Below, piece after piece: positions 6,434 to 47,448 of a DNA stretch of 64,000 bases; position 1 is the first letter of the stretch, and each line of letters opens with the position of its first letter. Where the stretch lies: contig JBHPFI010000003.1 of assembly GCA_042572045.1 (NCBI GenBank), positions 6,342-70,341 of the forward strand. Reading direction: 5' to 3'. This DNA comes from Candidatus Omnitrophota bacterium. Lineage in GTDB: Bacteria > Omnitrophota > Gorgyraeia > Gorgyraeales > Gorgyraeaceae. Under the pieces are notes generated by a model. It made no database searches. It saw only the letters and a program-made list of their open reading frames with translations, and was not told the origin of the DNA. Position numbers and translations under genes: made by a program.

Positions 6434-6455
6434 TCAGATTAAAAGAAGGCCAGGC

Positions 6456-8739: not shown

Positions 8740-8982
8740 ATGGCGGTAAGAATCAGATTGAAGAGGTTTGGCACAAAAAAGAAACCACATCGCAGGATAG
8801 TCGTATGCGATAAAAAGCGCGCAAGGGACGGCAAGACCATAGAGGAGATAGGTTATTATGATCCTTCTAAAAATCCAGCGGTTATAGTAGTGGACAAGGA
8901 AAGGGCCAAATACTGGATATCCAATGGCGCTACCCCGTCCGAGACAGTGAAGACCCTGCTAAAAAAACAAAACGCTATTTAA
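8740..8982 (+). CDS. rpsP: 30S ribosomal protein S16
   Basis: MAVRIRLKRFGTKKKPHRRIVV, SD aggagg upstream. Confidence 0.95.
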   Translation: MAVRIRLKRFGTKKKPHRRIVVCDKKRARDGKTIEEIGYYDPSKNPAVIVVDKERAKYWISNGATPSETVKTLLKKQNAI

Positions 8983-9025
8983 ATGCTTTGAGCGCGCGAA
9001 ATAATCACGCCGTCTTGTTGATTTT

Positions 9026-9712: not shown

Positions 9713-9745
9713 GTCAAGATTAAAACTATTAAGGAGGAGGCTATC

Positions 9746-10135
9746 ATGAAGGAGATTCTTGAGATCGAAGCAGGTTTTATGAAAAAAGATATACCGAGTT
9801 TTAAGGTCGGGGATACGGTAAAGGTATTTGTAAAAATAAAAGAGGGTGACAAGACGCGCCTGCAGGCCTTTGAGGGGATTGTTATTGCAAAGAAGGGCTC
9901 TGGCGTCAGGGAGAGTTTTACTGTAAGGCGCATATCCTATGGCGAAGGCGTGGAGAGGGTTTTTCAATTGCATGCCCCTTCAATAGACTCTGTTGTCGTT
10001 GCAAAAAAGGGAAAGGTTAAAAGATCCAAACTTTATTACCTAAGAGGAAAGATTGGAAAAGATACGAAAGTCGAAGAAGAGAGGACGTTTGATAAAAAGG
10101 AAGATGCTTCTTTGGGAAAAAAAGGCGTTTCTTGA
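9746..10135 (+). CDS. rplS: 50S ribosomal protein L19
   Basis: FKVGDTVKV..KIKEGDKTRLQAFEG..RRISYGEGVERVF. Confidence 0.95.
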   Translation: MKEILEIEAGFMKKDIPSFKVGDTVKVFVKIKEGDKTRLQAFEGIVIAKKGSGVRESFTVRRISYGEGVERVFQLHAPSIDSVVVAKKGKVKRSKLYYLRGKIGKDTKVEEERTFDKKEDASLGKKGVS

Positions 10136-10760
10136 TGGCGCCTCTCTGATCCTTGGCCTGGATGAAGCAGGCCGCGGGCCCTTGGCCGGACCTGTAATAG
10201 CGGCAGCTGTTTTGTTAAAGCCATCGCCTTTAAAAAGATTTACCTTTCCCCGTTACGCCGAAAGGCTGGATGATTCCAAAAAATTGTCCTTTGCACAAAG
10301 GGAAAGGTCTTACAGGGAGATCTTAAAAAAATCCCTGTTCGGCGTAGGATTAAAAGACCCTAGATTTATAGACAGGCAAAATATACGCATAGCGACGCTT
10401 CTGGCTATGAAGGAGGCGGTAGAAAAGGTTGTAACCAAGTATTGCCGGCTGAACAACAAACTAGAGGCGAGGATAAGAGACAGTATCTGCGTGTTGGTTG
10501 ACGGCGATTGCGACCCTGATGTCCCTTACCGGAAGATCCCGATAATAAAAGGCGACTCGAGGAGCGTTTCAATTGCTGCGGCATCAATAGTTGCCAAAGT
10601 TACGCGCGACAGGATGATGGTATCTTATGACAAAAGGTATCCTGGGTATGGATTTTCAAGACACAAGGGATATGGCACAAGATTTCATATAGAGACAATA
10701 CAAAAACGCGGTCCGTGCCCTATTCACAGAAAGAGCTTTGCGCGCGTTAAGATAAAATGA
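10104..10760 (+). CDS. rnhB: ribonuclease HII
   Basis: GLDEAGRGPLAGPV catalytic motif. Internal ATG at 10104 chosen because the track start 10053 lies deep inside rplS. Confidence 0.9.
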   Translation: MLLWEKKAFLDGASLILGLDEAGRGPLAGPVIAAAVLLKPSPLKRFTFPRYAERLDDSKKLSFAQRERSYREILKKSLFGVGLKDPRFIDRQNIRIATLLAMKEAVEKVVTKYCRLNNKLEARIRDSICVLVDGDCDPDVPYRKIPIIKGDSRSVSIAAASIVAKVTRDRMMVSYDKRYPGYGFSRHKGYGTRFHIETIQKRGPCPIHRKSFARVKIK

Positions 10761-11140
10761 GCCTTGCAAGAATAGACACAGGAAAACGCGGAGAGGATCT
10801 AGCTGTATCTTACTTGAAAAAGCAAGGATACAAAATAATAGAGAAAAATTATAAGACAAAACAGGGTGAGATAGACATAATAGGCCGCCACAGGGGTTGT
10901 GTTTGCTTTGTGGAGGTTCGCGCCAGAAACACAAGAAGGTTCGGTTTGCCAGAAGATTCGATTAACAGAAAAAAACAGACACAGATTGCAAAGGTAGCCT
11001 TGTCGTATATAAAAAGGTTTGGATTAGAAGAGGAGAATTGCAGATTTGACGTAGTGAGCGTGGAGAACGTAAATAGCATTTCTCCAAAGCTAAAGCTGCT
11101 CAGGAACGCGTTTGAGTTAGTCGATCAGTACAAATATTGA
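10757..11140 (+). CDS. yraN: YraN/UPF0102 family endonuclease
   Basis: GEDLAVSYLKKQGYKIIEKNYKTKQGEIDII...VEVRAR pattern, position after rnhB. Confidence 0.85.
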   Translation: MSLARIDTGKRGEDLAVSYLKKQGYKIIEKNYKTKQGEIDIIGRHRGCVCFVEVRARNTRRFGLPEDSINRKKQTQIAKVALSYIKRFGLEEENCRFDVVSVENVNSISPKLKLLRNAFELVDQYKY

Positions 11141-11192
11141 GGCAGGATCTTAATAAGGGGCTTTGCCTCGAACAAAAACCTGGAGGTGGATA

Positions 11193-12902
11193 TTGAAAAA
11201 GGTTCCTAGCGATCTTGAGATTGCGCAAGCTGCAAAGATAAAACCCATCCTTGAAATCGCCCGTCAGATAGGAATAAAAGAAGACTATCTGGAGCTGTAC
11301 GGAAAATATAAGGCCAAGATATCCCTTTCTGTTTTGGACCACCTGAAAGATAAACCACAAGGAAAATTTATAGACGTTACCGCGATTACGCCTACGCCTC
11401 TAGGAGAAGGCAAGACCGTGACCACCATAGGTCTGAGCCTGGGACTTGCAAAGATCGGTAAAAGCGTCATAACAACTCTAAGGCAGCCCTCTATGGGGCC
11501 TGTGTTTGGAATAAAAGGAGGGGCAGCAGGTGGAGGGTATTCTCAGGTTTTGCCTATGGAAGATATTAATCTACATTTCACGGGGGACATCCATGCAGTA
11601 GGCGCGGCAAATAACCTCCTTGCGGCATTTATCGACAATCATTTATTAAAAGGGAACAAGCTCGACATAGACCCGGATTCAATTGTTGTCAGAAGGGTAG
11701 TTGATATAAGCGACAGGGCATTACGCCAGATCAGGATCGGTCTTGGCGGAAAAGAAAACGGCGTGCCCAGGGACACCGGATTTGATATAACAGTTGCAAG
11801 TGAAGTAATGGCAATACTTGCCTTAACAACAGGCCTGGATGATTTGAGAAAAAGATTAGGGAGAATGGTGGTTGCCTCTACTAAGGCAGGCAGGGCTGTT
11901 ACCGCAGAGGATTTAAAATGCGCGGGAGCGATGACCGTGCTTTTAAAAGATGCCATAAAGCCAAATCTTATTCAAACTACGGAGAACACGCCTTGCATTA
12001 TGCATGCAGGCCCTTTTGCCAACATTGCTCACGGAAACAATTCTGTGTTGGCCGACCTCATAGCTTTAAGGCTCGCGGATTACGTGGTAACTGAAAGCGG
12101 CTTTGGGGCTGATTGCGGGGCAGAGAAATTTTTGGATATAAAATGCAGGGCCAAAGGCCTTAAGCCACCTGATGGCATAGTGCTTGTATGCACTGTAAAG
12201 GCGCTGAAGATGCATGGAGGCGCCTTCCAAGCCATTCCTGGAAGGCCAATGGACATGGAGCTAGTGAAAAAAGAAAATGTAGAGGCAGTAATAAAAGGCT
12301 CGGGGAATCTTGTAAAGCATATAGAAAACTTAAAGTTGTTCGGCGTGCCGGTAGTGGTTGCTGTAAATAAATTTCTCTATGACGCCGAGAGGGAGATAAA
12401 TGCAATAAAAGATATAGCCAAAAAAGCGGGCGCAATGGATGTTGTTTTGAGCGAGGTCTGGGAAAAAGGCGGAGAAGGCGGAAAGGATCTGGCAAGGGCC
12501 GTAGTCAAGATGTGCGAACAAAAATCTAATTTTAAATTCCTATACGAGCTAGACTTGCCTATAAAAGAAAAGATAGAAAAAATCGCGAAAAAGATTTACG
12601 GGGCTAAGGGCGTAGAGTATTCGGAGGAGGCTGAAAAGAAAATAGCTTGTTACACAAAACTGGGCTATGATAAATTGCCTATAAACATGGCAAAGACCCA
12701 TCTTTCACTTTCGCATGACCCTAGCTTAAAAGGAAGGCCCGAAGGCTTTACCCTTCCGGTCAGGGATATCAGGATTTCAGCAGGCGCAGGATTTTTGTAT
12801 CCATTGTGCGGAACAATGCGCACTATGCCAGGCTTACCGTCAGTACCCGCTGGAACAAAGGTGGATATAGACAAAGACGGGAAAGTGGCAGGGCTATTTT
12901 AA
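11193..12902 (+). CDS. fhs: formate--tetrahydrofolate ligase
   Basis: PTPLGEGKTVTTIGL nucleotide loop, full-length similarity to FTHFS. TTG at 11193 is preceded by GGAGGTGG. Confidence 0.95.
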   Translation: MKKVPSDLEIAQAAKIKPILEIARQIGIKEDYLELYGKYKAKISLSVLDHLKDKPQGKFIDVTAITPTPLGEGKTVTTIGLSLGLAKIGKSVITTLRQPSMGPVFGIKGGAAGGGYSQVLPMEDINLHFTGDIHAVGAANNLLAAFIDNHLLKGNKLDIDPDSIVVRRVVDISDRALRQIRIGLGGKENGVPRDTGFDITVASEVMAILALTTGLDDLRKRLGRMVVASTKAGRAVTAEDLKCAGAMTVLLKDAIKPNLIQTTENTPCIMHAGPFANIAHGNNSVLADLIALRLADYVVTESGFGADCGAEKFLDIKCRAKGLKPPDGIVLVCTVKALKMHGGAFQAIPGRPMDMELVKKENVEAVIKGSGNLVKHIENLKLFGVPVVVAVNKFLYDAEREINAIKDIAKKAGAMDVVLSEVWEKGGEGGKDLARAVVKMCEQKSNFKFLYELDLPIKEKIEKIAKKIYGAKGVEYSEEAEKKIACYTKLGYDKLPINMAKTHLSLSHDPSLKGRPEGFTLPVRDIRISAGAGFLYPLCGTMRTMPGLPSVPAGTKVDIDKDGKVAGLF

Positions 12903-13501
12903 TGTACATTTCCGGATCCATTAAAAGATACGTTGAAGATCTGGCGGCTCGTAAACCAGCGCCAGGAGGGGGAAGCGCTGCGGCTTTTTCAGGAGCGCTT
13001 GGGGTAGCGTTACTTGAGATGGTGTGCAACTTCACGCTTGGAAACGAAAAATATAAAGACCTTGGAGTGGACATGCAAACTTACCTCGCATCTTTAAGGA
13101 AGATAGAAAAAGAGTTTTGTTCATTAATAGACGATGATGTAAAATGCTATTCGGTTATACGAGATGCCTTTAAGTCAAAAGATAAAAAAGTTATTGATAA
13201 GGCCCTAAAAGACGGCTATCGTACCTCTTTAAAAACATGCAAGGTATCTATCGAGGCCTTGAAAATAGCTGTCTTGCTCCCGGAAAAAGGCAACCCCAAC
13301 TTAATAACAGATGTTGGCTGTGGCGCTGAGCTCTTAGAGGCCTCTTTTAACTCCGGAATTTTTAATGCTGAGATAAACCTAAAAGGCTTAGAGGATGAGG
13401 ATTTTATAAAAAAAGAACGGGCTTTGCTGGAAGAAATAAAAAAAGAAAGTACTTTTTTATACAAGGACGCGATAAGTAAAACCCAAAATAAAATGAGGTG
13501 A
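12902..13501 (+). CDS. fchA: methenyl-THF cyclohydrolase / cyclodeaminase-family protein (FchA-like)
   Basis: RKPAPGGGSAAAFSGALG motif. ATG shares one base with the fhs stop (TAATG). Confidence 0.85.
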   Translation: MYISGSIKRYVEDLAARKPAPGGGSAAAFSGALGVALLEMVCNFTLGNEKYKDLGVDMQTYLASLRKIEKEFCSLIDDDVKCYSVIRDAFKSKDKKVIDKALKDGYRTSLKTCKVSIEALKIAVLLPEKGNPNLITDVGCGAELLEASFNSGIFNAEINLKGLEDEDFIKKERALLEEIKKESTFLYKDAISKTQNKMR

Positions 13502-13503
13502 CC

Positions 13504-14364
13504 ATGGCTGCAAGTCTCTTGGACGGAAAAACCCTTTCAAAAAACATCAAGGAAGAAATAAAAAAAGAGGTCGAGCTTCTAAAAACAAAATACAATAAAA
13601 CGCCTAAATTGGTCAGTATCCAGGTTGGCGAGAACCCTGCCTCAGAGGTATATTTGAAATCCCAGAAAAAAAACGCTGAAAACCTCAGCATAGAATACCG
13701 CCTTGAGAAGTTAGACCAAAAGATATCTCAGGATGAGCTTGTAAAGGTAATCGACGGGTTTAACAAGGATAAATCAGTAAACGGTATCATGATTCAGATG
13801 CCGCTTCCTTCCCAGGTAGACGCTAAATTGATTTCGCGATATATATGTCCTTTAAAGGATGTTGAGGCTGTGCACCCTGAGAACATGGGGGAGATCGTGT
13901 TTGGAAACGCAAAGATCTTGCCGTGCACAGCTGCCAGCTGCATGGAGCTTTTGAATTCAATAGAATCGCTTGAGCTGTACGGAAAGGAAGTGGTTATCGT
14001 CGGTCACAGCGAAATAGTTGGAAAACCATTGGCATTAATGCTCTTGAATAAATTTGCCACTACCACTGTCTGTCATATCGCGACTGGCGAAAGGGGTAGG
14101 CTTCCGGAATTTGTTAAAAACGCGGAGATATTGGTCGTGGCCGTTGGTAAGGCAGAACTTATCAAAGGCGAATGGGTGAAGGATGGCGCTATTGTAATTG
14201 ATGTTGGGATAAACAGGGTTGAGGGAAAGCTCGTAGGCGATGTAGAATTTGACAGCGCTCAGGAAAAGGCTTCTTATATTACCCCTGTGCCGGGCGGCGT
14301 AGGACCGCTGACTGTGGCAATATTAATGAAAAATCTTGTGACGGCATATAAACTACAACAATAA
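13504..14364 (+). CDS. folD: bifunctional methylene-THF dehydrogenase / methenyl-THF cyclohydrolase
   Basis: LLDGK N-terminus, PVPGGVGPLTVA C-terminal motif. ATG 13504 follows GAGGTGA. Confidence 0.95.
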   Translation: MAASLLDGKTLSKNIKEEIKKEVELLKTKYNKTPKLVSIQVGENPASEVYLKSQKKNAENLSIEYRLEKLDQKISQDELVKVIDGFNKDKSVNGIMIQMPLPSQVDAKLISRYICPLKDVEAVHPENMGEIVFGNAKILPCTAASCMELLNSIESLELYGKEVVIVGHSEIVGKPLALMLLNKFATTTVCHIATGERGRLPEFVKNAEILVVAVGKAELIKGEWVKDGAIVIDVGINRVEGKLVGDVEFDSAQEKASYITPVPGGVGPLTVAILMKNLVTAYKLQQ

Positions 14365-14376
14365 GAGGTGTGTAAA

Positions 14377-15243
14377 ATGTCCTTATGCGATAAAACCAAA
14401 GCAGGAAAATTCATCCTTACCTCTGAGATAGGCCCGCCAAAAGGCACTGACATCGAAGAGGTGTTAAAAGACGCCCTCCTTATCAAAGACAGGGTAGATG
14501 CCGTAAACGTGACTGACCTGCAGAGTTCTGTCATGCGCGTTGGGTCTTTGGCCATCTGCAAACTTTTGATAGAACGCGGGATAGAGCCTGTATTTCAGAT
14601 TACCTGCAGAGACAGGAACAGGCTCGCCCTGCAATCAGATCTCTTGTCCGCATCTGTTTTTGGGATAAAGAATGTGCTGGCGCTCACAGGGGATCATCCT
14701 GCTCTTGGCGACCATCCGCAGGCAAAGCCTGTGTTTGACATGGATTCAGTGCAGTTGCTTGATGCAATCAGGGGACTGGCCTCAGGAAAAGATATGGCAG
14801 GAAAAGAATTAAAAGGCTCTCCTGAATTCTGCGTAGGAGCGGTTGTGAACCCCGGGGCCGACCCAATAGAACCCGAGATCATAAAGATGGAAAAAAAGAT
14901 TGATAGGGGCGCGCAGTTTTTTCAGACCCAGGCGATTTACGATATAGATTTATTTAAAAAATTTATGGAGGCCACAGGGCATTTAAAAACCACGATTATC
15001 GCGGGCATTGTGCTTTTAAAATCCGCCGGCATGGCCAGATTTATGAACAAAAACGTCAGCGGGGTGTTCGTGCCCGATCACCTTATAGAGGAAATGGACA
15101 AGACGCAGGATAAGAGCGCCAAGTCGATAGAGATAGCGGCGCGGCTTATAAAGGAACTCAAGCCCATGTGTCAGGGCATTCACGTCATGCCCATTGGGTG
15201 GGATAAGAAGGTCCCTTTGGTCCTTGACGCAGCTGGATTATGA
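14377..15243 (+). CDS. metF: methylenetetrahydrofolate reductase, acetogen/anaerobe type
   Basis: TSEIGPPKG, ALTGDHP, FFQTQAIYD blocks typical of MetF of anaerobes. ATG 14377 follows AGAGG. Confidence 0.85.
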   Translation: MSLCDKTKAGKFILTSEIGPPKGTDIEEVLKDALLIKDRVDAVNVTDLQSSVMRVGSLAICKLLIERGIEPVFQITCRDRNRLALQSDLLSASVFGIKNVLALTGDHPALGDHPQAKPVFDMDSVQLLDAIRGLASGKDMAGKELKGSPEFCVGAVVNPGADPIEPEIIKMEKKIDRGAQFFQTQAIYDIDLFKKFMEATGHLKTTIIAGIVLLKSAGMARFMNKNVSGVFVPDHLIEEMDKTQDKSAKSIEIAARLIKELKPMCQGIHVMPIGWDKKVPLVLDAAGL

Positions 15244-15974
15244 AAATAGCCATTACTGGAAAAGGCGGCGCGGGAAAGACTTCTATTGCGGCAGGGCTTG
15301 CTTTTATTTTTAGAGATCAAGGCAAGAAGGTAATAGCGATAGATGCCGACCCTGATGCAAACCTTGCGACAGCGATAGGGCTTCCTGAAAGGCCTACGCC
15401 GATCGCTGAATTAAAAAAAATAATACTTGAGCGCACGGGAGAAGTCGGCGCATTTTTTAAGCTGAACCCCAAGGTAGACGATATCCCGGATAAATTTTCA
15501 AAACTTTATAACGGCATCAGGCTTATAGAGATGGGGACTGTAAAAAAAGGCGGGAGCGGTTGCGTTTGTCCGGAAAGCGCATTTCTAAAGGCATTGTTGA
15601 GTCATGTATTTTTAAACAGGGATGAAGTTATCGTGGTGGATATGGAGGCCGGGGTAGAGCACTTAGGAAGAGGTACGGCTGGGGCAGTGGATAAATTTAT
15701 AATAGCGGTAGAGCCGAATTTTACATCGCTGGATACTGCCAGCAAGATAAAAAATCTGGCTGAGAATTTGAAAGTGAAAGAGGTATTTGTCATAGGGAAC
15801 AAGATCCGTTCCGGCCAGGACAAGGATTTTATAAATAAGAATATAAAGGGCTTGAGGGTCGAAGGGTTTATAGACCTGGATGAAAATCTTTTAGCTGCAA
15901 GAGGCGCCCTGCCGAGTGATTCGCAATTCATAAAAGATCTGGAGGAGGTCATAAATGTCAAAACCAACGGGTAA
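15240..15974 (+). CDS. cooC: CODH nickel-insertion accessory ATPase CooC
   Basis: P-loop GKGGAGKT and metal-binding C-x-C (GSGCVCPE). 4-nt overlap with metF. Confidence 0.9.
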   Translation: MKIAITGKGGAGKTSIAAGLAFIFRDQGKKVIAIDADPDANLATAIGLPERPTPIAELKKIILERTGEVGAFFKLNPKVDDIPDKFSKLYNGIRLIEMGTVKKGGSGCVCPESAFLKALLSHVFLNRDEVIVVDMEAGVEHLGRGTAGAVDKFIIAVEPNFTSLDTASKIKNLAENLKVKEVFVIGNKIRSGQDKDFINKNIKGLRVEGFIDLDENLLAARGALPSDSQFIKDLEEVINVKTNG

Positions 15975-17877
15975 TCCTGTAAATGATAAGCTGATAGAAC
16001 TTGCCAAAAAGAACAACATCGCTACAGTATGGGATCGCTTTGCAGAGCAGGAACCGCAATGCGGTTTTGGTGCGCTAGGGGTGTGTTGCAAGATATGTAA
16101 TCTGGGCCCTTGTCGCATAGACCCATTTGGTGAGGGCGCACAAGTCGGTACATGCGGGGCAGATGCCGATATCATAGCCGCGAGAAACCTTGTACGCAAC
16201 GCTGCTGCGGGCGCCGCGTGTCACTCTGATCACGGCCGTGATCTTGCCAGGACTTTACTTGAATTAGGCAGGGGGCAGGCAAAGGATTATCAGATAAAAG
16301 ACCCAAAAAAATTACGAACCATGGCTCAAGAGTTTGGATTAAAGATAGATGGCAAAAATGACCTTAAGATAGCTGAAGAATTAGGTGAAAAGATCTTGAA
16401 GGAATTCGGCAATCAGGAAGGCGAACTCACGCTTCTCAAGAGAGCTCCAAAAAAACAGCGTGAAAACTGGAAAAAATTTAACGTGACTCCTGTAGGCATT
16501 GATATAGAAGTGGTCCAGGCTCTCTCGCGTACTCATATAGGGTGCGATAACGAATATAAACATGTGACTGAGCAGGGTATCAAAGCATCGCTTGCAGACG
16601 GCTGGGGCGGGTCCATGATAGCGACTGACCTTAGCGACATCCTTTTTGGCTCACCGCAGCCTATACGCGCGGAAGTAAATCTCGGCGTATTAAAAGAAGA
16701 CGAGGTGAATATTTTGGTCCATGGGCATGAGCCCACATTGTCAGACATGATAGTTACTGCCAGTCAAGACAAGGAAATCAGAGAGCTGGCAAAGAAAAGC
16801 GGCGCAAAAGGTATTAACCTTGCGGGCATATGTTGTACTGCCGCAGAGATTTTGATGAGGCATGGCATGCCTATGGCAGGAGGCTTCCTGCAGCAGGAGC
16901 TGGCAATAATTACGGGCGCAGTCGAAGCAATGGTCGTGGACATACAATGCATCATGCCTTCGCTTTCAGAGGTTGCCAAAAATTACCACACAAAACTCAT
17001 CTCTACTTCGCCAAAGGCAAAGTTTAAAGGAATAGAGCATATTGAGTTTCATGAAAAAGAGGCACTAAAAATCGCTAAAAAGATCTTGACCGAGGCTATT
17101 GAAAATTATAAAAATAGAGACAAGACCAAGGTGAATATCCCCAAAGAAAAAATGACTATCGTGGCTGGGTTTACCATGGAAAATGTCTTTTACAATCTCG
17201 GAGGCACTTTTAGAGGCACCTACAGGCCTCTCAATGACGCGATAATAAGCGGAAGGATAAGGGGCGTAGCAGGCGTTGTAGGTTGCGATAACCCTAAAAA
17301 TGAATCAAGCATGTGCCACGCTGATATGGTAAAACACCTTATAAAGAATGACGTGCTTGTAGTACAGACAGGTTGCTCTGCTGGCGCGTGCGGAAAGGCA
17401 GGGCTTTTGACGCCTGAGGCCGCATTTAAATATGCGGGGGACGGGCTTAAGGAGATCTGCGAAACAGTCGGCATACCGCCAATACTTCACACAGGTTCCT
17501 GTGTTGATAACACGAGGATCTTAACGGCATGCTGTGAAATGGTAAAAGAAGGCGGTATTGGCGCTAGCATTGACGAACTTCCTGTTGCAGGCGCAGCGCC
17601 CGAGTGGATGTCAGAAAAGGCAATAGCAATAGGGTGGTATTTTGTTACATCAGGCATTTTTGTCGTTATAGGCTCTCCTTTAAGGGTCCTTGGCAGCAAG
17701 AATGTCTCAAACTATATCTGTAATGAGATCGAGCCTATGTTTGGCGGTAAATGGGCATTTGAAAGCGATCCTGTAAAGGCAGCGCAACTTATGATCGAAC
17801 ATATTAATAAGAAGCGCGAGGCGCTTAAACTTGGGTCTATGATGTATGCTGAGGCAACAGTTGGAGCAAGGACATGA
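15955..17877 (+). CDS. acsA: anaerobic Ni,Fe carbon-monoxide dehydrogenase catalytic subunit (CooS/AcsA)
   Basis: N-terminal B/D-cluster cysteines CGFGALGVCCKICNLGPCR, 640 aa, conserved HGHEP and GSCVDN blocks. Confidence 0.95.
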   Translation: MSKPTGNPVNDKLIELAKKNNIATVWDRFAEQEPQCGFGALGVCCKICNLGPCRIDPFGEGAQVGTCGADADIIAARNLVRNAAAGAACHSDHGRDLARTLLELGRGQAKDYQIKDPKKLRTMAQEFGLKIDGKNDLKIAEELGEKILKEFGNQEGELTLLKRAPKKQRENWKKFNVTPVGIDIEVVQALSRTHIGCDNEYKHVTEQGIKASLADGWGGSMIATDLSDILFGSPQPIRAEVNLGVLKEDEVNILVHGHEPTLSDMIVTASQDKEIRELAKKSGAKGINLAGICCTAAEILMRHGMPMAGGFLQQELAIITGAVEAMVVDIQCIMPSLSEVAKNYHTKLISTSPKAKFKGIEHIEFHEKEALKIAKKILTEAIENYKNRDKTKVNIPKEKMTIVAGFTMENVFYNLGGTFRGTYRPLNDAIISGRIRGVAGVVGCDNPKNESSMCHADMVKHLIKNDVLVVQTGCSAGACGKAGLLTPEAAFKYAGDGLKEICETVGIPPILHTGSCVDNTRILTACCEMVKEGGIGASIDELPVAGAAPEWMSEKAIAIGWYFVTSGIFVVIGSPLRVLGSKNVSNYICNEIEPMFGGKWAFESDPVKAAQLMIEHINKKREALKLGSMMYAEATVGART

Positions 17878-18389
17878 AAGGGATCATTGTAATTGATCCG
17901 AAAAAATGTTTGGCATGCAGGACCTGTGAGCTTCAATGCGCAATAGCGCATTCGGAGTCAAAGGACCTGGCAAAGGCAATTTGTGAAGACCCTCTTCCTC
18001 AGACAAGGGTCAAGGTCGAGGGAATGGATGATTTAGCAATGCCTCTACAATGTCGGCACTGTGAAGATGCGCCTTGTGTTAAGATCTGTCCGACAGAAGC
18101 CACGATAAAATCAGAAGACGGCGGGCCCGTCCTGATAAAAGACAAGCTCTGCATCGGGTGCAAGTGGTGCGTACTGGTCTGTCCGTTTGGCGTGATTCGC
18201 ATGGCTAGAGGAGGCGCAGCTGTAACCAAATGCGACCTCTGCTTTGAAAGGCTTGAAAAAGGCGAAGCGCCTGCATGCGTAGCAGCGTGTCCGAGCAAGG
18301 CCATGCAGTTTAAGTCCATAGAAGAGGTATCCAAAGGCAAGAAAAGAGAGTATTTGGTCAAATTCAAAAAGGAGAAAGAGCTGATCTAA
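17874..18389 (+). CDS. CooF-like polyferredoxin with four CxxCxxCxxxCP-type motifs
   Basis: CLACRTCELQC, CRHCEDAPCVKICP, CIGCKWCVLVCP, CDLCF...ACVAACP. 4-nt overlap with acsA. Confidence 0.85.
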   Translation: MKGIIVIDPKKCLACRTCELQCAIAHSESKDLAKAICEDPLPQTRVKVEGMDDLAMPLQCRHCEDAPCVKICPTEATIKSEDGGPVLIKDKLCIGCKWCVLVCPFGVIRMARGGAAVTKCDLCFERLEKGEAPACVAACPSKAMQFKSIEEVSKGKKREYLVKFKKEKELI

Positions 18390-18844
18390 TGGCAAAGACC
18401 AGGGAATCTGAAAAAGTCGATGTGATTTGCATGCTGCAGGAGATCCAAAATAAACATAATTATCTGCCAAAAAAAGATCTTGAGCGCATAACAAAAAAAT
18501 TAAACATCCCCCTCAGTCAGACCTATAGCCTGGCTACATTTTATAAGGCGTTTAGCCTGAAGCCGCGCGGCAAGTTTTTGATCTCTGTATGCATGGGGAC
18601 TGCGTGTCATGTGCGCGGAGCCGAGAAGATCCTGGGTGAAATTCAAAGGACGCTAAAGATAAAACCTGGCCAAACATCAGAAGACCAGAAATTTACACTA
18701 GAGACTGTTAATTGTTTAGGGGCTTGCGCATTAGGCCCCTTAATGGTGGTTAATGGTGAATATTATGGCAGCATGAATGCCAAAAAGGTAAGCGCAGTTT
18801 TGAAAAAATATATTGCTCAAAAGAAAAATGCCCAAAAAAGCTAA
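18389..18844 (+). CDS. NuoE/HydC-like thioredoxin-fold [2Fe-2S] protein
   Basis: CMGTACHVRG ... CLGACALGP cysteine pattern. ATG overlaps the upstream stop by 1 nt. Confidence 0.85.
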   Translation: MAKTRESEKVDVICMLQEIQNKHNYLPKKDLERITKKLNIPLSQTYSLATFYKAFSLKPRGKFLISVCMGTACHVRGAEKILGEIQRTLKIKPGQTSEDQKFTLETVNCLGACALGPLMVVNGEYYGSMNAKKVSAVLKKYIAQKKNAQKS

Positions 18845-20636
18845 AAAATCTGCTTTATCCAAAAAAGATTCTGACAAGCCTTGTATTGCGATATGCAAAG
18901 GCACAGGATGTTCTGTATCCGGCGCGGCTGGACTGGAAGAGGCATTCAAGAAAGAGATAGCTGTAAAAAAGATATCTCAAAAGGTGACTGTCCGCACCAC
19001 TGGTTGCCATGGGTTCTGTGAAAGAGGTCCGGTGGTCGTGATACATCCAAGCAAGATCTTTTATCAGAGAGTACAAGCAAAAGATGCGCCAGATATAATC
19101 CAGACAACGATCATCGAAAATAAAACAGTCGATCGCTTATTATATAAAGATCCGGCAACCGGAGAAAAAATAACCCATGAACATGAAATACCTTTTTATA
19201 AAAAACAGCTAAGGCTTATTTTTGGCAATAATGGCAAGATCGATCCTACACAGATCGAAGATTATATCGCAATAGGCGGCTATAGCTCCCTATCTAAAGC
19301 AAGAACCAAGATGTCTTCTGAGGCGGTGATTGAGGAAATAAAAAATTCTGGATTGCGAGGTCGTGGTGGCGGCGGCTTTCCTACTGGCAGAAAATGGGAA
19401 TCATGCTACAAAGCCGAAGGCAAAATTAAATATGTGATCTGTAATGCGGATGAAGGGGATCCTGGCACTTTTCAGGATAGGAGCATTCTTGAAGGAAATC
19501 CTCATGCTGTCATAGAGGGCATGCTGATAGGCGCCTATAGTGTTGGAGCAAAAGAAGGCTATATATATGTGCGCAATGAATATCCTTTGGCAATAAAACA
19601 CGTTGAGATCGCCTTGCGCCAGGCGCGAGAACACGGGTTCCTTGGTAAGGATTTTAATATTTACATACAGAGGGGCGGAGGCGCATTTGTATGCGGTGAG
19701 TCCTCTGCATTAATGGCTTCCATAGAAGGCAGGCTTGGTGAGCCCAGATTTAAGCATGCTCATGCAACTGAAAAGGGTCTTTGGGACAGGCCTACGACTT
19801 TAAATAATGTTAAGACATGGGCAGCTGTGCCATTGATCATAAATAAAGGCGCTAGGTGGTTTGCAAAGATAGGGACTGAAAAAAGCAAAGGCACAATGAT
19901 ATTTTCTCTGGTAGGAAATATTAATAATACCGGCCTCGTTGAAGTGCCAATGGGCATAACATTGCGCAAGTTGATCTATGAAATAGGTGGCGGCATACCC
20001 GGCGGAAAAAAACTAAAGGCGGTCCAGACAGGCGGCCCATCAGGCGGATGTATTCCAGAAAAACTATTGGACCTGCCAGTAGACTATGAAAGACTGTCTG
20101 ATGCAGGCTCAATGATGGGGTCCGGCGGCATGATAGTCATGGATGAGGCCACCTGCATGGTCAATATAGCCAGGTACTTTTTATCGTTTACCATAAATGA
20201 ATCCTGCGGAAAATGCACGCCCTGTCGCGAAGGCACAACTCATATGTTAGATACGCTTACCAGGATTACTAAGGGCCAGGGAATAACTGGAGACGTTGAG
20301 CTCCTAGAGGAATTAGGAAACTTGACCAAGGCAACTTCTTTGTGCGCATTGGGTAAAAGCGCGCCAAACCCTGTATTGACTACTATAAAATATTTTCGCG
20401 ACGAGTATGAATCGCATATCAATGATAAAAAATGTCCAGCTGGCACCTGTACCGCGCTGATACAGTATTCTATCGATGAATCCAGGTGCACTGGCTGCGG
20501 TGTTTGCAAAAACGAATGTCCTGAAAAGGTTATTTCCGGAGAAAAGAAAAAGAAACATAAGATAGACCAGCTTAAGTGCATTAAATGCGGAATCTGCAAC
20601 GACGTCTGTAAATTCGAGGCTGTCAAGATATCATGA
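18828..20636 (+). CDS. NuoF/HydB-like NAD(P)H-binding FMN flavoprotein with N-terminal 2Fe-2S domain and C-terminal 2x[4Fe-4S] domain
   Basis: CKGTGC...GCHGFCERGP (N-terminal 2Fe-2S), GLRGRGGGGFPTGRKW (FMN), ESCGKCTPCREG, C-terminal CTGCGVCKNECP + CIKCGICNDVC. Start could be 18813 or 18828. Confidence 0.85.
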   Translation: MPKKAKKSALSKKDSDKPCIAICKGTGCSVSGAAGLEEAFKKEIAVKKISQKVTVRTTGCHGFCERGPVVVIHPSKIFYQRVQAKDAPDIIQTTIIENKTVDRLLYKDPATGEKITHEHEIPFYKKQLRLIFGNNGKIDPTQIEDYIAIGGYSSLSKARTKMSSEAVIEEIKNSGLRGRGGGGFPTGRKWESCYKAEGKIKYVICNADEGDPGTFQDRSILEGNPHAVIEGMLIGAYSVGAKEGYIYVRNEYPLAIKHVEIALRQAREHGFLGKDFNIYIQRGGGAFVCGESSALMASIEGRLGEPRFKHAHATEKGLWDRPTTLNNVKTWAAVPLIINKGARWFAKIGTEKSKGTMIFSLVGNINNTGLVEVPMGITLRKLIYEIGGGIPGGKKLKAVQTGGPSGGCIPEKLLDLPVDYERLSDAGSMMGSGGMIVMDEATCMVNIARYFLSFTINESCGKCTPCREGTTHMLDTLTRITKGQGITGDVELLEELGNLTKATSLCALGKSAPNPVLTTIKYFRDEYESHINDKKCPAGTCTALIQYSIDESRCTGCGVCKNECPEKVISGEKKKKHKIDQLKCIKCGICNDVCKFEAVKIS

Positions 20637-21415: not shown

Positions 21416-23580
21416 TTGCATCAGCTGCCATAAGAGGCGCGCAAAAAATTTACAAAGAGGCAGAGGATTTTCTGAATAAGGCAATTAAAGAAAAGAACGA
21501 AGACTGCGAGGTCAAATTTCCAGAGACCGCTTTTTATTTCCCAATGGCCTACGCTCTTCTTGGGAAAGAAGTGAAGACTCTCGCAGAGGCCAAAGAGGTG
21601 CTGCAGTTTTCAAAGACGCTCCTCCATGATGAACCTACTGAAAAGATATGGCTGCCTTATCTGGGGGATACTCTGGATTCAGGTGTCGCAACGTTATTGT
21701 GCGAAGAGATCATAATGGCATTACGATACCTATATAACCAGGAGCCACAGAAGGACTGTAATGGTTTTTTCTCAGACACCATTCTGCGCACACTTGGTAT
21801 TCAGCTTGTGGATGGAAGAATGCCAGGATTCGCAGCTATTTTAGGCGCAGCGCCTGACAATAAGACCGCTGTTAATATTGTACGCGAGCTTCAAAAACGC
21901 AGCATAATGACATTTATTGGTAGTTCAGTAAATGACCGAAGTATTATTGACCAGCTCATAGAAGAGAAGGTAGAGATGGGATGGGATACCTATATAGTAC
22001 CCTATGGCAGGGATAGCTTGAGCGCAATATATCCTTTAAACTGGGCAATTCGCGGCGCTCTTACATTTGGTGGCCATAAAAAAGGGGAGGCGCTTAAATG
22101 CCTGAAGTATTGTAAAGACAGGGTGTTTGCGTTTGGCATGGTTTTGGGCGAGTTGGATGATATAAAATACGCAACTGGCGCAGGCGCTATAAATATGGGA
22201 TTTCCTATCATAGCCGATACTAATATTCCTGAGATACGACCAACCGGCATATGTACCTATGAACACGTGATAAAAGAGCTAGACCACAAAAAAATAGTCC
22301 CGACAGCTATTGAATTAAGGGGAATAAAATTAAAGGTCTCAGAGATACCGATACCTGTGTCTTATTCTCCGGCGTTTGAAGGCGAACGCGTTAGACGCGA
22401 GCAAATGTTTGCGCAATTTGGCGGCAAATATTCAACCGCATTTGAATATGTCAAAATGGTGGGTGCGGATAAGATAGAGGATGGCAAGATCGAAGTCATT
22501 GGTCCGGAAGTGGACGATATCAAAGAAGGAGACGCTGCTCCTTTAGGAATAGTCGCAGAGGTCGCCGGCAGAAAGATGCAAAAGGATTTTGAACCTATAC
22601 TGGAGAGACAGATGCACAGCTTCTTGAATGAAGCGATGGGCATATTCCACATGGGCCAGAGAGACATGTGCTGGATAAGGATCTCCAAGGACGCAAAAGA
22701 TAAAGGGTTAAAACTCAAACATTTTGGCGTAATACTGCATGCGCGTTTTCACGATGTGTTCAGCGCGATAGCTGATAAAGTGCAGGTAACGATTTACACA
22801 AAACAGGAAGATGTGGAGAAAAAAATAAAAGAGGCGCAAAAATCATATAATGAAAGAGACGCGCGCGTTGCAGGCATGACAGATGAAAACGTTGATTTAT
22901 TCTGGACATGCACGCTTTGTCAGAGTTTTGCGCCAAACCATCTTTGTATAATAAAACCTGAAAGGATCGGATTGTGCGGAGCGTACAACTGGCTGGACGC
23001 CAAGGCGTCTTATGAGTTGAATCCGACAGGGCCCAATCAGCCTATCAAAAAAGGGGAATGCCTTGATCCTGTAAAAGGCGAGTGGAAAGGCGTGAATGAA
23101 ATTCTATCGCAGAAATCCAATCGCACGCTTGAGAGGTTTTGCGGATATTCTATCATAGATTCACCTGAGACCAGCTGCGGGTGCTTTGAATGCATAATAG
23201 CCATATTGCCGGAGGTAAACGGGTTTATGGTGGTAAACAGGGAATACGCGGGCGCAACGCCGGCTGGCATGGGCTTTTCAACCCTGGCAGGAACAATCGG
23301 CGGGGGTCAGCAAACTCCGGGTTTCATGGGCATAGGAAGGCTTTATATCACAAGTAAAAAATTTATCTCTGCGGAAGGCGGTATTAAAAGAATAGTATGG
23401 ATGCCCAAGGAGCTAAAAGAGGCGCTTAGCGATAAACTAAAAGAACGAGGCAAGGAATTGGGAGAGCCTGACTTAATAAATAAAATAGCAGATGAGACAG
23501 TAGCTACGTCTAGTGAAGAGCTATTGCCTTATCTAGAGAAGGTCGGCCATCCAGCATTGACAATGGAAGTAGTAATGTAA
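21403..23580 (+). CDS. acsB: acetyl-CoA synthase (A-cluster subunit, AcsB/CdhC type)
   Basis: 725 aa. A-cluster ligands WTCTLCQSFAPNHLC and Cys-Gly-Cys (SCGCFECI). Confidence 0.95.
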   Translation: MSKIIASAAIRGAQKIYKEAEDFLNKAIKEKNEDCEVKFPETAFYFPMAYALLGKEVKTLAEAKEVLQFSKTLLHDEPTEKIWLPYLGDTLDSGVATLLCEEIIMALRYLYNQEPQKDCNGFFSDTILRTLGIQLVDGRMPGFAAILGAAPDNKTAVNIVRELQKRSIMTFIGSSVNDRSIIDQLIEEKVEMGWDTYIVPYGRDSLSAIYPLNWAIRGALTFGGHKKGEALKCLKYCKDRVFAFGMVLGELDDIKYATGAGAINMGFPIIADTNIPEIRPTGICTYEHVIKELDHKKIVPTAIELRGIKLKVSEIPIPVSYSPAFEGERVRREQMFAQFGGKYSTAFEYVKMVGADKIEDGKIEVIGPEVDDIKEGDAAPLGIVAEVAGRKMQKDFEPILERQMHSFLNEAMGIFHMGQRDMCWIRISKDAKDKGLKLKHFGVILHARFHDVFSAIADKVQVTIYTKQEDVEKKIKEAQKSYNERDARVAGMTDENVDLFWTCTLCQSFAPNHLCIIKPERIGLCGAYNWLDAKASYELNPTGPNQPIKKGECLDPVKGEWKGVNEILSQKSNRTLERFCGYSIIDSPETSCGCFECIIAILPEVNGFMVVNREYAGATPAGMGFSTLAGTIGGGQQTPGFMGIGRLYITSKKFISAEGGIKRIVWMPKELKEALSDKLKERGKELGEPDLINKIADETVATSSEELLPYLEKVGHPALTMEVVM

Positions 23581-23661: not shown

Positions 23662-23753
23662 GATAGCGGGAGAAGAGTTAGTTTTATGATAACAAAAAAT
23701 GTCAAGGGTCAGATTTGTTCGAACGAAGCGGACTCATTAAAGGAGATGACTAA

Positions 23754-27008: not shown

Positions 27009-27638
27009 ATGTCTTATTTTATATTATCTTTAGGTGTACTTGCCGCCTATTTAATCGGTTCAACGCCAACCGCTTACATCTTTGGCCGCTTGTTAAAAGG
27101 CGTTGATATACGACAGTTGGGAAGCGGCAACGTAGGCGCGACAAACACCTTCAGGGTTATTGGCAGGATTCCGGGTCTAATGGTTCTGGCAATAGATATC
27201 CTAAAAGGGTTTGTGTGCGTTACCTATATTGCGAATTGTGTTATGTATGTCTCTCCGGCGCCAAGGCCTGAATTTTATAGAGTGCTTATGGGCTTGGTCG
27301 CCATACTGGGACATAATTGGCCTGTATTTTTGAAGTTTAAAGGCGGCAAAGGCGTTGCTACAAGCGCAGGGGTCGTGATAGGGCTTATACCAGGGATATT
27401 CTGGATAGGGTTCCTGGTATGGTGCATTGTATTCTCTATAACAGGGTATATATCCCTAGCCTCTATCATAGCATCTGTTTCAGTGCCGTTATTTACCCTG
27501 ATCTTCGGGCAATCAACAGAAGTCGTTGTGTTTATGAGCATCCTCTGTGTTGTGATAACATACAAGCACAGGCCAAATATAAAGCGCTTAAAAAAAGGGG
27601 AAGAAAAAAGAATATCCTTGTTTGGCAAATCAAGATAG
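27009..27638 (+). CDS. plsY: glycerol-3-phosphate acyltransferase PlsY
   Basis: GSGNVGATN motif, polytopic membrane protein. ATG 27009 follows GAGGAG. Confidence 0.9.
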   Translation: MSYFILSLGVLAAYLIGSTPTAYIFGRLLKGVDIRQLGSGNVGATNTFRVIGRIPGLMVLAIDILKGFVCVTYIANCVMYVSPAPRPEFYRVLMGLVAILGHNWPVFLKFKGGKGVATSAGVVIGLIPGIFWIGFLVWCIVFSITGYISLASIIASVSVPLFTLIFGQSTEVVVFMSILCVVITYKHRPNIKRLKKGEEKRISLFGKSR

Positions 27639-27675
27639 CTTGACAAATCAGTCAATGAGAAATGTGTCAAGTTAG
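27639..27675 (+). repeat. CTTGAnAAATC..TCAATGAnAAA palindromic element, copy A
   Basis: 37 nt identical to 47391-47427 except one base. Nested hairpins TTGAC-N6-GTCAA and CTTGACA-N19-TGTCAAG. Confidence 0.8.
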
Positions 27676-29701: not shown

Positions 29702-29727
29702 CTTTTTGTCATTGAGGATTTATCAAG
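29702..29727 (-). repeat. CTTGAnAAATC..TCAATGAnAAA element, copy D (reverse orientation)
   Basis: The reverse complement, cttgaTaaatcctcaatgacaaaaag, matches 39557-39582 at 25 of 26 nt. Confidence 0.8.
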
Positions 29728-29739
29728 TTGCGTTGCCTA

Positions 29740-29768
29740 TTGACACCTTAGATTTTTTACTATATACT
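29740..29768 (+). promoter_or_regulatory. sigma70-like promoter upstream of trpB
   Basis: TTGACA-N17-TATACT; ATG is 26 nt downstream of the -10, after GGAGAT. Confidence 0.6.
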
Positions 29769-29793
29769 TTATATCTTATATTGGAGATAGAGT

Positions 29794-39515: not shown

Positions 39516-39551
39516 AGGGGTCTTACATTTTTTGTAAGACCCCTTTATTTT
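39516..39551 (+). terminator. rho-independent terminator
   Basis: 12-bp stem AGGGGTCTTACA / TGTAAGACCCCT, 5-nt loop, followed by TTATTTT. Confidence 0.85.
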
Positions 39552-39556
39552 GCTAA

Positions 39557-39582
39557 CTTGAGAAATCCTCAATGACAAAAAG
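39557..39582 (+). repeat. CTTGAnAAATC..TCAATGAnAAA element, copy C
   Basis: cttgaGaaatcctcaatgacaaaaag. Inner hairpin TTGAG-N5-CTCAA covaries with TTGAC/GTCAA of copies A and B. Confidence 0.8.
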
Positions 39583-39614
39583 TTATTCGCCCTAGTATAT
39601 TATTTGACGAATAA

Positions 39615-39629
39615 TCCGCCTTTGGCGGA
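39615..39629. repeat. GC-rich hairpin TCCGCC-TTT-GGCGGA
   Basis: Same stem as the 3802 and 44285 hairpins but a different loop. Confidence 0.55.
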
Positions 39630-39697
39630 TGCATCAATTTCATGTGTAAAGTTAGAAGGCGCTCGGGTCCGCGAATAAGCCTCTCTTTCTATTTTCC

Positions 39698-43485: not shown

Positions 43486-44280
43486 ATGTTTATCATCGGC
43501 GAGCGAATAAATGGGATGTTTAATGACGTGGCGGATGCCCTAAAGAAAAAGGATGAATCGGTCATACAGGGTCTTGCGGAAAAACAGATTGCATGCGGCG
43601 CAAATGCGCTGGATGTAAATGTAGGGCCGTCTTCTGACAGCCCAAAAGAGGCCATGCAGTGGCTTGTAAGAACCATTACCGCAGTCACTGATATAACGCT
43701 TGCCATCGATACCACAAAAAACGATGTAATGGAGGCCGGGCTTTCGTTGTGCAAGTCAGAGCCTATAATCAATTCTGTAAACGCCAATCAGGATAAAATG
43801 AATTCGCTTTTTGCGCTCGCAAAAAAATACAACGCGTCTATTATAGGGCTAACTATGGATAAGTCTGGCATACCAAAAGACGCTGAAGGTCGGTTAGAGC
43901 TCGGCATGAAGATAGTGGCATTTGCTCTTGAGCAGGATTTTGATATATCTAAACTTTACATCGACTCTGTGATCCTGCCTGTAAATGTCGCGCAGGTTCA
44001 CGCAAAAGAAGTGTTAAAAACAATAAGGGATTCGAAGATGTTGGCAGCCCCTCCGCCAAAGACAATGCTTGGCCTGTCTAACGTGTCCCAGGGCGCGCCA
44101 TACGAAAACAAGCCCCTTATAAACAGAACGTTTATGGTAATGGCAATAGCTTCGGGCCTAGACGGAGCCATTATGGATGTTACTGACAAAGAATTAGTCG
44201 ATGCGGGAATAACCGCAGAGCTTTTAATGGAAAAACAGCTTTACTGCGACTCTTATATCGAGGCATACAGAAAAAAGTAA
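43486..44280 (+). CDS. acsE: methyl-THF:corrinoid/iron-sulfur protein methyltransferase
   Basis: MFIIGERING N-terminus, pterin-binding barrel blocks (LDVNVG, INSV, GLSNVS). Confidence 0.9.
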   Translation: MFIIGERINGMFNDVADALKKKDESVIQGLAEKQIACGANALDVNVGPSSDSPKEAMQWLVRTITAVTDITLAIDTTKNDVMEAGLSLCKSEPIINSVNANQDKMNSLFALAKKYNASIIGLTMDKSGIPKDAEGRLELGMKIVAFALEQDFDISKLYIDSVILPVNVAQVHAKEVLKTIRDSKMLAAPPPKTMLGLSNVSQGAPYENKPLINRTFMVMAIASGLDGAIMDVTDKELVDAGITAELLMEKQLYCDSYIEAYRKK

Positions 44281-44305
44281 GTTCGTCCGCCTCAGGCGGA
44301 CGAAC
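44281..44305. repeat. 11-bp stem hairpin GTTCGTCCGCC-TCA-GGCGGACGAAC immediately after the acsE stop
   Basis: The core 17-mer is the reverse complement of 3802-3818. Confidence 0.7.
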
Positions 44306-44339
44306 TTATCCTTGACGTTTTTTTTGAGGTTATTGGGAA
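44301..44339 (+). repeat. shared intergenic motif CGAACTTATCCTTGAsG-T-run-GGTTATT, copy 2
   Basis: Aligns with 23625-23661. Confidence 0.6.
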
Positions 44340-47375: not shown

Positions 47376-47384
47376 GGCCCCTCG

Positions 47385-47429
47385 CCCTAACTTGACAAAT
47401 CAGTCAATGATAAATGTGTCAAGTTAGGG
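47385..47429 (+). repeat. CTTGAnAAATC..TCAATGAnAAA element, copy B, with 13-bp perfect outer inverted repeat
   Basis: CCCTAACTTGACA-N19-TGTCAAGTTAGGG. The interior matches copy A. Confidence 0.85.
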
Positions 47430-47448
47430 CGTGCAGCTGATATTGTCC

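Follow-up and report, generated by a model that had tools for sequence, protein, structure and literature searches.

A REP-like family of 37-39-nt palindromic intergenic repeats as the probable source of four related sequences in an Omnitrophota genome

Four related short sequences lie between genes in a window of 64 kb (the whole stretch of DNA analysed here) from a Candidatus Omnitrophota metagenome-assembled genome, and the question that this locus raises is whether they form a motif tied to the promoters beside which two of them stand or belong to a more widely dispersed kind of repeat. The sequence-only reading of this DNA had described them as four copies of one small intergenic element, built around an inner hairpin, assigned to the class of REP/MITE-like structured repeats (repetitive extragenic palindromes and miniature inverted-repeat transposable elements) and associated with the promoters of rpsU and trpB. 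The reading that we favour, with a probability that we put at roughly 0.6, is that two of the four (A and B) are members, and the other two (C and D) decayed derivatives, of a REP-like family of palindromic intergenic repeats of 37-39 nt distributed across the Omnitrophota. The family is multi-copy, has a true stem of 18 bp, lies nearly only between genes, is often anchored on stop codons, occurs in both orientations and is gained and lost between relatives. The best reading of these properties is that the family is REP-like in its behaviour, not a new kind of regulator, and that it is new for the Omnitrophota. The four copies in the window are the following:

27636-27674: copy A, a 39-nt palindrome, TAGCTTGACAAATCAGTCAATGAGAAATGTGTCAAGTTA.
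29702-29729, minus strand: copy D, a remnant, AACTTGATAAATCCTCAATGACAAAAAG, with no partner arm.
39555-39586, plus strand: copy C, a 32-nt deletion derivative, TAACTTGAGAAATCCTCAATGACAAAAAGTTA, in which the only pairing left is that of the terminal TAACTT/AAGTTA.
47383-47431: copy B, with its 39-nt palindrome intact (core 47388-47426, TAACTTGACAAATCAGTCAATGATAAATGTGTCAAGTTA) and a stem extension CGCCC/GGGCG.

All four are present where they had been reported and they exceed chance, each of the two gap variants of the consensus having 2 matches in the 64 kb as against 0.02-0.03 in shuffled sequences. The similarities first described among them also stand: A and B have 37 nt in common with one mismatch, C and the minus strand of D have 26 nt in common with one mismatch, and a core of 24 nt is common to the four. 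Their description as four copies of one element holds only in part, because only A and B are full members, C being a deletion derivative and D a remnant. Compared over a greater length, A and B have 40 nt in common at 95% identity, and when aligned with sequences from relatives they are 39-nt palindromes of the form TAACTTGACA + 19 nt + TGTCAAGTTA. Copy B, which follows the tatA stop codon by 12 nt, contains the perfect outer inverted repeat of 13 bp attributed to it, its arms in an inverted-repeat scan being really 18 nt long, 94% complementary and separated by a 13-nt centre; its RNA is predicted to fold at -27.1 kcal/mol (z = -8.5) on either strand, and a covariance model for which only 39-mers of relatives were used recovers it with 46.4 bits (E = 3.3e-7). 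The corresponding values for copy A are -13.4 kcal/mol (z = -2.9) and 25.6 bits (E = 0.006). Copy A is also not strictly intergenic, as all four had been thought to be: its bases 1-3 are TAG, the stop codon of plsY (27636-27638), and it is because of this first triplet that its G appears as a mismatch. The copy takes up most of the 62-nt gap between plsY and a DinG-like helicase gene, a gap that relatives do not have. The annotated start of the helicase at 27701 has no obvious Shine-Dalgarno sequence, other in-frame ATGs occur at 27662 (inside copy A) and at 27677 (just past it), and the annotated start may not be the true one.

The two remaining copies are much further from the full form. Copy C, located 3' of the terminator of a Gly-zipper gene (39516-39544) and upstream of the gene for RACo, has a weak fold (z = -1.9) and obtains 12 bits from the covariance model (E = 3.5), through its termini only. 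Copy D, which has the helicase stop on one side and the trpB promoter on the other, at a site where two loci from relatives (L028 and L151) hold intact elements, is unfolded (-0.9 kcal/mol, z = 0.02) and is missed by the model. Relative to A and B both have the same internal deletions, namely one base and the 7-nt TGTGTCA of the 3' arm, and they are therefore copies of one derivative. A relaxed scan of the 64-kb window yielded no extra copies above the level of shuffled sequences. In its source genome the family looks sparse, old and decaying: the 64 kb hold a single intact copy, one that is imperfect and two relics or, with A counted as intact, 2 intact and 2-3 degenerate copies.

The anatomy of the family becomes clear in relatives. 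A metagenome scan with the pattern TAACTTNACANNTN{9,15}ANNTGTNAAGTTA gave at least 120 loci, about 780 kb in total, and this presence of further copies in relatives favours a real family. The class proposed at first is the right one; the repeats are palindromic, exist in many copies between genes and differ in presence from one relative to another. The unit is a near-perfect palindrome of 39 nt, TAACTT(G/T)ACA – 8 bp – 3-nt loop – 8 bp – TGT(C/A)AAGTTA, with stems rich in AT and a sharply peaked length (39 nt in 122 and 37 nt in 40 of 179 elements). The 10-bp termini are conserved across genomes, and the 8-bp inner stem is lineage-specific and co-varies strongly. Among 71 distinct sequences the share of paired cells in the alignment is 91.7%, whereas shuffled sequences reach 77.9% and controls with slid partners 24-43%; double-change cells number 195 against 73 in shuffles and are spread over nine pairs, and the positions left free by the search pattern are still complementary and co-varying. 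Four pairs illustrate the extent of this exchange:

Pair 7/33: TA 84, GC 22, CG 3.
Pair 11/29: AT 48, CG 31, TA 21.
Pair 15/25: GC 52, AT 24, TA 10, CG 6.
Pair 17/23: GC 60, AT 27, TA 14.

An abundant subfamily keeps two fixed mismatches, T.T and C.C in one orientation and A.A and G.G in the other, and the bases flanking the terminal TA are complementary above chance (47% at ±1 and 37% at ±2). There is in addition a subfamily that ends in CAACTT...AAGTTG (L092 5698-5760 and 6673-6735; L070 9448; L078 330; L063 674-790 and 12050); owing to these termini it has no terminal stop codon, and because the TAA-anchored detector missed it the family counts are lower bounds.

The real covariation is thus that of the full 18-bp stem of the 39-nt palindrome and not that of the inner hairpin, TTGAC-N6-GTCAA or TTGAG-N5-CTCAA, in which a compensatory swap had been proposed. 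Copy D reads TTGAT...CTCAA, which breaks the claimed pair; the minimum-free-energy folds of A and B bypass the inner hairpin and take the outer stem, and the weak fold of C and the lack of one in D offer it no support. In the 71 family members from relatives the positions of the inner hairpin are paired in 35.8% of cases, as against 36.1% in shuffles, with zero compensatory change. What spoke for a small element of this kind, serving the promoters of rpsU and trpB as an operator or in the form of an RNA motif, was the 24-nt core found in all four window copies and the proximity of B and D to those promoters, which we find again: the -35 of rpsU (TTGACA at 47449, 17-nt spacer, TAAAAT) is 19 nt away from B and that of trpB (TTGACA at 29740, 17-nt spacer, TATACT) is 12-13 nt away from D, both promoters matching sigma-70 at 11 of 12 positions. 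The two promoters are nevertheless conserved even in relatives without the element, and the elements of relatives are found at gene junctions of every sort, for the most part with a stop codon before them and the next ribosome-binding site after them. The folds and the pairing in the 71 members largely refute this explanation, which we consider scarcely credible and which only a function peculiar to the lineage of the source genome could save.

The context of the elements in the relatives is that of gene junctions in general. By crude calls of open reading frames (ORFs), 158 of 163 elements are intergenic, and the gene pairs around them (102 tandem, 12 convergent and 12 divergent) have the same composition as the background of all adjacent pairs. 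In 57 of 160 elements an ORF of 100 codons or more ends at the first TAA of the element. All other positions within the element together account for 25 such stops, about 48 further ORF stops lie 1-15 nt upstream of it, and of random TAA triplets only 2% end an ORF of that size. On the 3' side there is a purine-rich stretch, due to the Shine-Dalgarno sequence, and then an ATG start. Of 113 oriented cases, 89 have a co-directional start no more than 200 nt away, for the most part at 6-40 nt, and 7 have a run of T after the element. This context (stop, Shine-Dalgarno sequence, start and rare T-runs) indicates that the elements are mostly intercistronic hairpins and not canonical terminators. Their orientation with respect to transcription is random, the subfamily with fixed mismatches appearing both in its A.A/G.G and in its T.T/C.C form, and a test for selection at the level of RNA showed no bias toward G.U pairs on the sense strand (31 against 30).

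These data bear directly on the possibility that the elements are Rho-independent terminators whose sequence likeness is due to chance. Stable hairpins at the 3' ends of genes are what that explanation expects (-27 kcal/mol for B and -25 kcal/mol for a variant palindrome at 44278 that is described below), and it accommodates the seven T-runs and the position of B and of copies in L278, L028 and L151, which close transcription units and immediately precede promoters. It fits poorly with the lack of a T-run in 94% of cases, with stems that are AT-rich, with the nearness of most copies to the next co-directional start (at 6-40 nt a promoter would not fit) and with the coexistence nearby of GC-rich terminators that do have T-runs, such as that at 39516-39544; moreover, the imperfect positions that copies have in common point to copying and not to convergence. 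A scan for terminators found none on the plus strand at B. We regard terminators as a highly improbable explanation.

The comparison of orthologous junctions shows how readily the elements come and go. The DinG-like helicase, whose gene lies between copies A and D, matches a protein of a Candidatus Omnitrophota metagenome-assembled genome at 100% identity. Its close homologues are 63-79% identical and all belong to Omnitrophota, as do those of the M16 peptidase, and the loci around orthologous helicase genes, L022, L025, L027 and L028/L029 among them, were compared with the window; several of the scanned loci carry orthologues of window genes at 50-69% identity, and the proteins in them that can be named are from Omnitrophica GWA2_41_15 and CG1_02_40_15. 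L022 (helicase 77% identical) has two elements of the form TAAGTTGACACTT-N13-AAGTGTCAACTTA with loops in opposite orientations, one of which overlaps the helicase stop. L028/L029 (74% identical) is syntenic with positions 27-39 kb of the window, and 22 kb of L028 contain 11 palindromes, nearly identical and about 37 nt long, with the form (C/T)TAACTTTACATTTCAAC-AAY-GTTAAAATGTAAAGTTA(G/A), which fill 11 of its approximately 16 gene junctions; in 9 of the 11 the first TAA is the stop of the upstream gene, and the ribosome-binding site and ATG of the next gene follow 7-20 nt past the element. Four more copies are present in 14.6 kb of L278, from the same genome, and the loci L025 and L027, the latter from the closest relative, have none.

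Junction by junction, plsY and the helicase gene, which in relatives are translationally coupled through an ATGA overlap, abut or overlap in L022, L025, L027 and L028, and are separated in the source genome by copy A and 23 nt. The elements that L028 has at trpB|trpA, CdhD|pgsA and other junctions are absent from L027, L025 and the source genome. At another junction L080 and L081 hold elements of different subfamilies and L111 is empty, with an ATGA overlap of stop and start. Upstream of the rpsU promoter an element is found in the source genome (B) and in L278 and is lacking in L276 and L277, which are closer relatives; an element upstream of the trpB promoter is intact in L028 and L151 and reduced to the remnant D in the source genome. 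Each genome has its own homogeneous subfamily, common imperfections included. Together with the random orientation and the missing G.U bias, these differences speak for copying and not for evolution in place.

Between the helicase region and trpB, L025 has an AbiEii/AbiEi toxin-antitoxin pair (17606-19019), and L150 and L151 differ there too, so that the region downstream of the helicase is a hotspot of variable content. In L022 the helicase is directly followed (6235-16082) by an ORF of giant size, 14,822 residues as called, that continues past the edge of the locus; we take it to be reminiscent of the giant genes reported for Omnitrophota.

Conservation of the termini raises the alternative that the 10-mers themselves are double-stranded DNA sites of a sequence-specific protein, of a nucleoid-associated, regulatory or replication/partition type, and that the palindromes are simply inverted pairs of sites. 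The 10-mer is the most conserved part of the element, and in phage-like contigs (L041/L173, L190, L220 and L223) it forms iteron-like arrays around AT-rich DNA. A pair of sites would however need none of the features of the DNA between the 10-mers, which is palindromic, fixed in length and rich in compensatory changes. Outside palindromes the arm 9-mers are rare: 292 copies are within palindromes and 60 outside (about 25 being expected from composition), and most of the 60 belong to variant palindromes or to one phage-like contig. TTGACA and TTTACA are, besides, -35-like hexamers that are common for other reasons. We judge binding sites of this sort to be very unlikely as an explanation of the family. 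The arrays of TAACTT(T/G)ACA themselves are found at L041 60-490 (the same as viral L173), at L190 10100-10480 and in viral loci between L154 and L233, and consist of direct repeats and of inverted pairs 5 nt apart, a common unit being TTTAACTTTACAATC every 21-22 nt. A link of the 10-mer to phages is suggestive at most, because a control 10-mer of the same composition also turns up in 52 viral contigs, the two real ones being present in at least 120 and in 89.

Placing the family among known systems, the greatest likeness is to REPs. Both are imperfect palindromes of 20-40 nt, highly repeated and extragenic; both lie mainly just downstream of coding regions in operons, in both orientations; both have species-specific subfamilies with variable presence between relatives; and both have termini able to give the stop codon of the flanking ORF. 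GTAG REPs have termini that frequently supply the stop codon of flanking ORFs, and REP-like families without the tag exist (Di Nocera et al. 2013, PMC3733652). REP copies near stop codons affect translation and mRNA stability, and REPs within 15 nt of a stop codon are reported to stall ribosomes (PMC12306157, citing Liang et al. 2015). The Omnitrophota element differs in lacking GTAG/CGTC and having instead a symmetric 10-bp TAACTT(T/G)ACA at both ends that is conserved across lineages, in its long (18 bp) and nearly perfect stem with a 3-nt loop, and in that neither REPIN-type doublets nor an association with REP-associated tyrosine transposases (RAYTs) were seen in the loci examined. Since it has no GTAG/CGTC tag and no visible RAYT partner, it is REP-like in behaviour and stands outside the tagged REP families.

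Likeness to MITEs such as the Correia elements of Neisseria (IS630/Tc1-type, with TA as target) lies in terminal inverted repeats that start and end with TA, in intergenic positions beside genes with transcription into hairpins (which in Correia elements are substrates of RNase III) and in presence/absence polymorphism. With 37-39 nt, however, the Omnitrophota element has nothing between its inverted repeats, whereas Correia elements measure about 100-160 nt. Under a model of TA target duplication the invariant TA at the ends is indistinguishable from the element itself, and the flanks are partly complementary beyond it, to the extent given above, which a simple TA duplication does not predict.

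Several other identities were considered and rejected. Inverted pairs of the DNA uptake and uptake signal sequences of Neisseria and Pasteurellaceae, which act as terminators, resemble the element in being a lineage-specific 10-mer inverted just downstream of genes; uptake sequences are however abundant as single copies, also within genes, and here single arms are rare (the counts of 9-mers inside and outside palindromes exclude an abundant single motif) and the spacer between arms is fixed in length and itself paired. Competence is not known in Omnitrophota. At its ends the element is like the inverse core site and the core site of attC, RYYYAAC...GTTRRRY (for example gCCTAAC...GTTAGGc), and attC sites are likewise imperfect palindromes directly 3' of an ORF. 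This identity is rejected because the flanked genes are not cassettes, being housekeeping genes (trpBA, lepA, plsY, Wood-Ljungdahl genes) that are syntenic in several relatives; no integrase was found near elements in the loci examined, where the only recombinase is a XerC-like housekeeping one, and known attC sites, of about 57-141 nt, are longer than the Omnitrophota element. An operator of a transcription factor does not agree with elements that follow the stops of unrelated genes, with a mix of gene pairs equal to the background and with promoters conserved in their absence. For an extracytoplasmic-function (ECF) or sigma-70 promoter (AACTT-N15/16-AnAAA or TTGACA...TGTAAA) the spacers misfit, the whole spacer is conserved and both orientations are used. 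Resemblances to sites of IHF, Fur, TyrR (the TyrR box), LacI-type regulators, dif/Xer and parS were considered as well, and none of them fits the arrangement.

Searches of databases gave no name for the family. Against Rfam 15 the sole match in the window was a tRNA, copy B giving only sub-threshold chance matches under permissive thresholds, and no match was obtained for L028 8600-14200. A scan of genome contigs with the consensus proposed at first, in a collection that does not include the source genome, returned 21 lone matches scattered over unrelated taxa, which is the level of chance. In the searchable literature we found no description of an Omnitrophota repeat family or of these sequences.

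If the elements are indeed REP-like repeats, they would spread by copying and pasting from master copies in the manner of REPs or MITEs, and their conserved termini would be the recognition site of a putative enzyme acting in trans. Insertions would persist preferentially where the terminal TAA serves as, or adjoins, a stop codon. In a polycistronic mRNA the element would then form an 18-bp hairpin extending from the stop codon to just before the next Shine-Dalgarno sequence, and by analogy with E. coli REPs near stop codons such a hairpin may block 3' exonucleases, leading to differential stability of the cistrons, and may hinder the terminating ribosome, so that translation would be uncoupled or damped.

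Several observations weigh against this reading. No recurrent transposase-like ORF was found near the elements in the approximately 780 kb, and an all-against-all clustering of 1,548 ORFs in search of a recurrent neighbour returned housekeeping families only. E. coli RayT, compared by phmmer with the six-frame ORFs of about 1 Mb of loci, had one match (L139, E = 6e-9), and this lone RAYT-like gene is flanked by palindromes of another type, GTACAACCCCGGAGGTTGTA. The elements carry no GTAG or CGTC tag, their termini being TAAC.../...GTTA on both sides. Among the sites compared neither a clean pair of filled and empty sites nor a target-site duplication was seen, and filled sites consist of the empty site, the element and 11-26 extra bases (in sequences 75-85% identical). 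The census is one of loci and not of whole genomes, and the presence of an element was the reason for which most of these loci were selected. Finally, the conserved 10-base termini, the tight length and the layout of stop, hairpin and Shine-Dalgarno sequence could equally result from selection for a function in the host. As to L139, its RAYT/IS200-like Y1 transposase gene (10528-11220) has the HUH and Tyr motifs and GTACAACCCCGGAGGTTGTA-type palindromes on both sides, which makes it a REPtron-like unit with no relation to the TAACTTTACA family.

Selection by the host would make of the element an intercistronic hairpin that serves, as RNA or through a bound protein, in processing, in stability or in gating termination and re-initiation, with copying being secondary. 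Such punctuation would account for termini that are conserved across divergent Omnitrophota while the inner stem need only pair, for a length fixed at 37 or 39 nt, for the stereotyped order of stop, hairpin, Shine-Dalgarno sequence and ATG, for the extreme occupancy of junctions in L028, for the preference for the first TAA over all other stops in the element (57 against 25), and for elements that distant relatives, too, have a short way upstream of the promoters of rpsU and trpB. A duplex of 18-23 bp is, moreover, near the size of an RNase III substrate. Punctuation agrees less well with close relatives whose corresponding junctions are without the element, often with overlapping, ATGA-coupled genes instead; with the random orientation and the missing G.U bias on the sense strand; with the elements in divergent intergenic regions, which are as frequent as in the background (12 of 126); and with the decay of C and D that the source genome allows. 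We hold a hairpin selected by the host to be a minor possibility. A bolder form of the same idea, which we consider unlikely, predicts an operon punctuation of the whole phylum in which a protein would bind the invariant base of the hairpin, TAACTT(T/G)ACA/TGT(A/C)AAGTTA, as RNA or as extruded DNA. Were this true, the cistron boundaries of these bacteria would be marked exactly where the stop codon lies, so that cistrons could be processed, stabilised or subjected to controlled termination and re-initiation, and their phages may reuse the same 10-mer in arrays.

Two further features of the window touch on the repeat family that we favour:

39642-39655, plus strand: a 3' arm standing alone, ATGTGTAAAGTTAG, 56 nt downstream of copy C, identical to the 3' arm of A and B at 13 of 14 positions and outside any palindrome.
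44278-44308: a perfect palindrome of 31 nt, TAAGTTCGTCCGCC-TCA-GGCGGACGAACTTA, whose first TAA provides the stop codon for the gene that ends at 44280.

The isolated arm may be the original partner of the 5' arm of C, split off by inserted DNA, or a solo arm. The palindrome at 44278-44308 has the TAAGTT/AACTTA termini of the family and a GC-rich inner stem of the GTCCGCC...GGCGGAC hairpin type; it folds at -25.4 kcal/mol (z = -8.9) and is missed by the covariance model, and its membership of the family is tentative. Hairpins of the form GTCCGCC-N3-GGCGGAC make up a second family, present in the window at 3799-3830, 23714-23745, 39612-39630 and 44282-44304, in L050 after its element and in L150 at 14830-14862, sometimes with a T-run and the look of a classic terminator. 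A third family of palindromes, (G)TCATTCCCGCGAACGCGGGAATCC / ATTCCCGCTTTTGCGGGAAT, occurs at L028 9350-9385, 16853-16892 and 21880-21950 and at about L150 14880-14910; its form, ATTCCC-N8-GGGAAT, is that of the dRS3 repeats of Neisseria. L150, from Ca. Gorgyraea atricola, has instead other long palindromes at junctions (7177-7219, 9917-9978, 16124-16167 and 21794-21835), some of which overlap stop codons; the palindrome CTAAAGTAGACAAAACAGTC-ACT-... could represent a diverged form of the family, and stems of 19-29 bp are found in a type of their own, GGTCCAGCC(T)CGGCTTT-N4-.... Long hairpins at gene junctions seem to be general in this clade.

Beside copy D, the trpB promoter and leader (29740-29793; TTGACAC-N16-TATATAMTTTATAAGCTATAT...GGAG) are strongly conserved in six Omnitrophota loci, to a degree beyond that expected of a plain promoter, and this suggests a conserved leader or regulatory element for trpBA.

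Omnitrophota are an uncultured and poorly understood phylum, and an element that in some genomes stands at up to two thirds of the gene junctions, and that supplies stop codons, affects the calling of genes (their stops and starts), the prediction of operons and assembly. What is notable in it is the stop codon inside the stem and the very high occupancy of junctions in some genomes. For the window the consequence is the removal of a candidate novel regulator of rpsU and trpB. At the level of the phylum, the genome-specific subfamilies provide a lineage marker, and the family offers a natural system in which to ask if hairpins of the REP kind, placed at stop codons, are parasitic or regulate the coupling of translation and the decay of mRNA.

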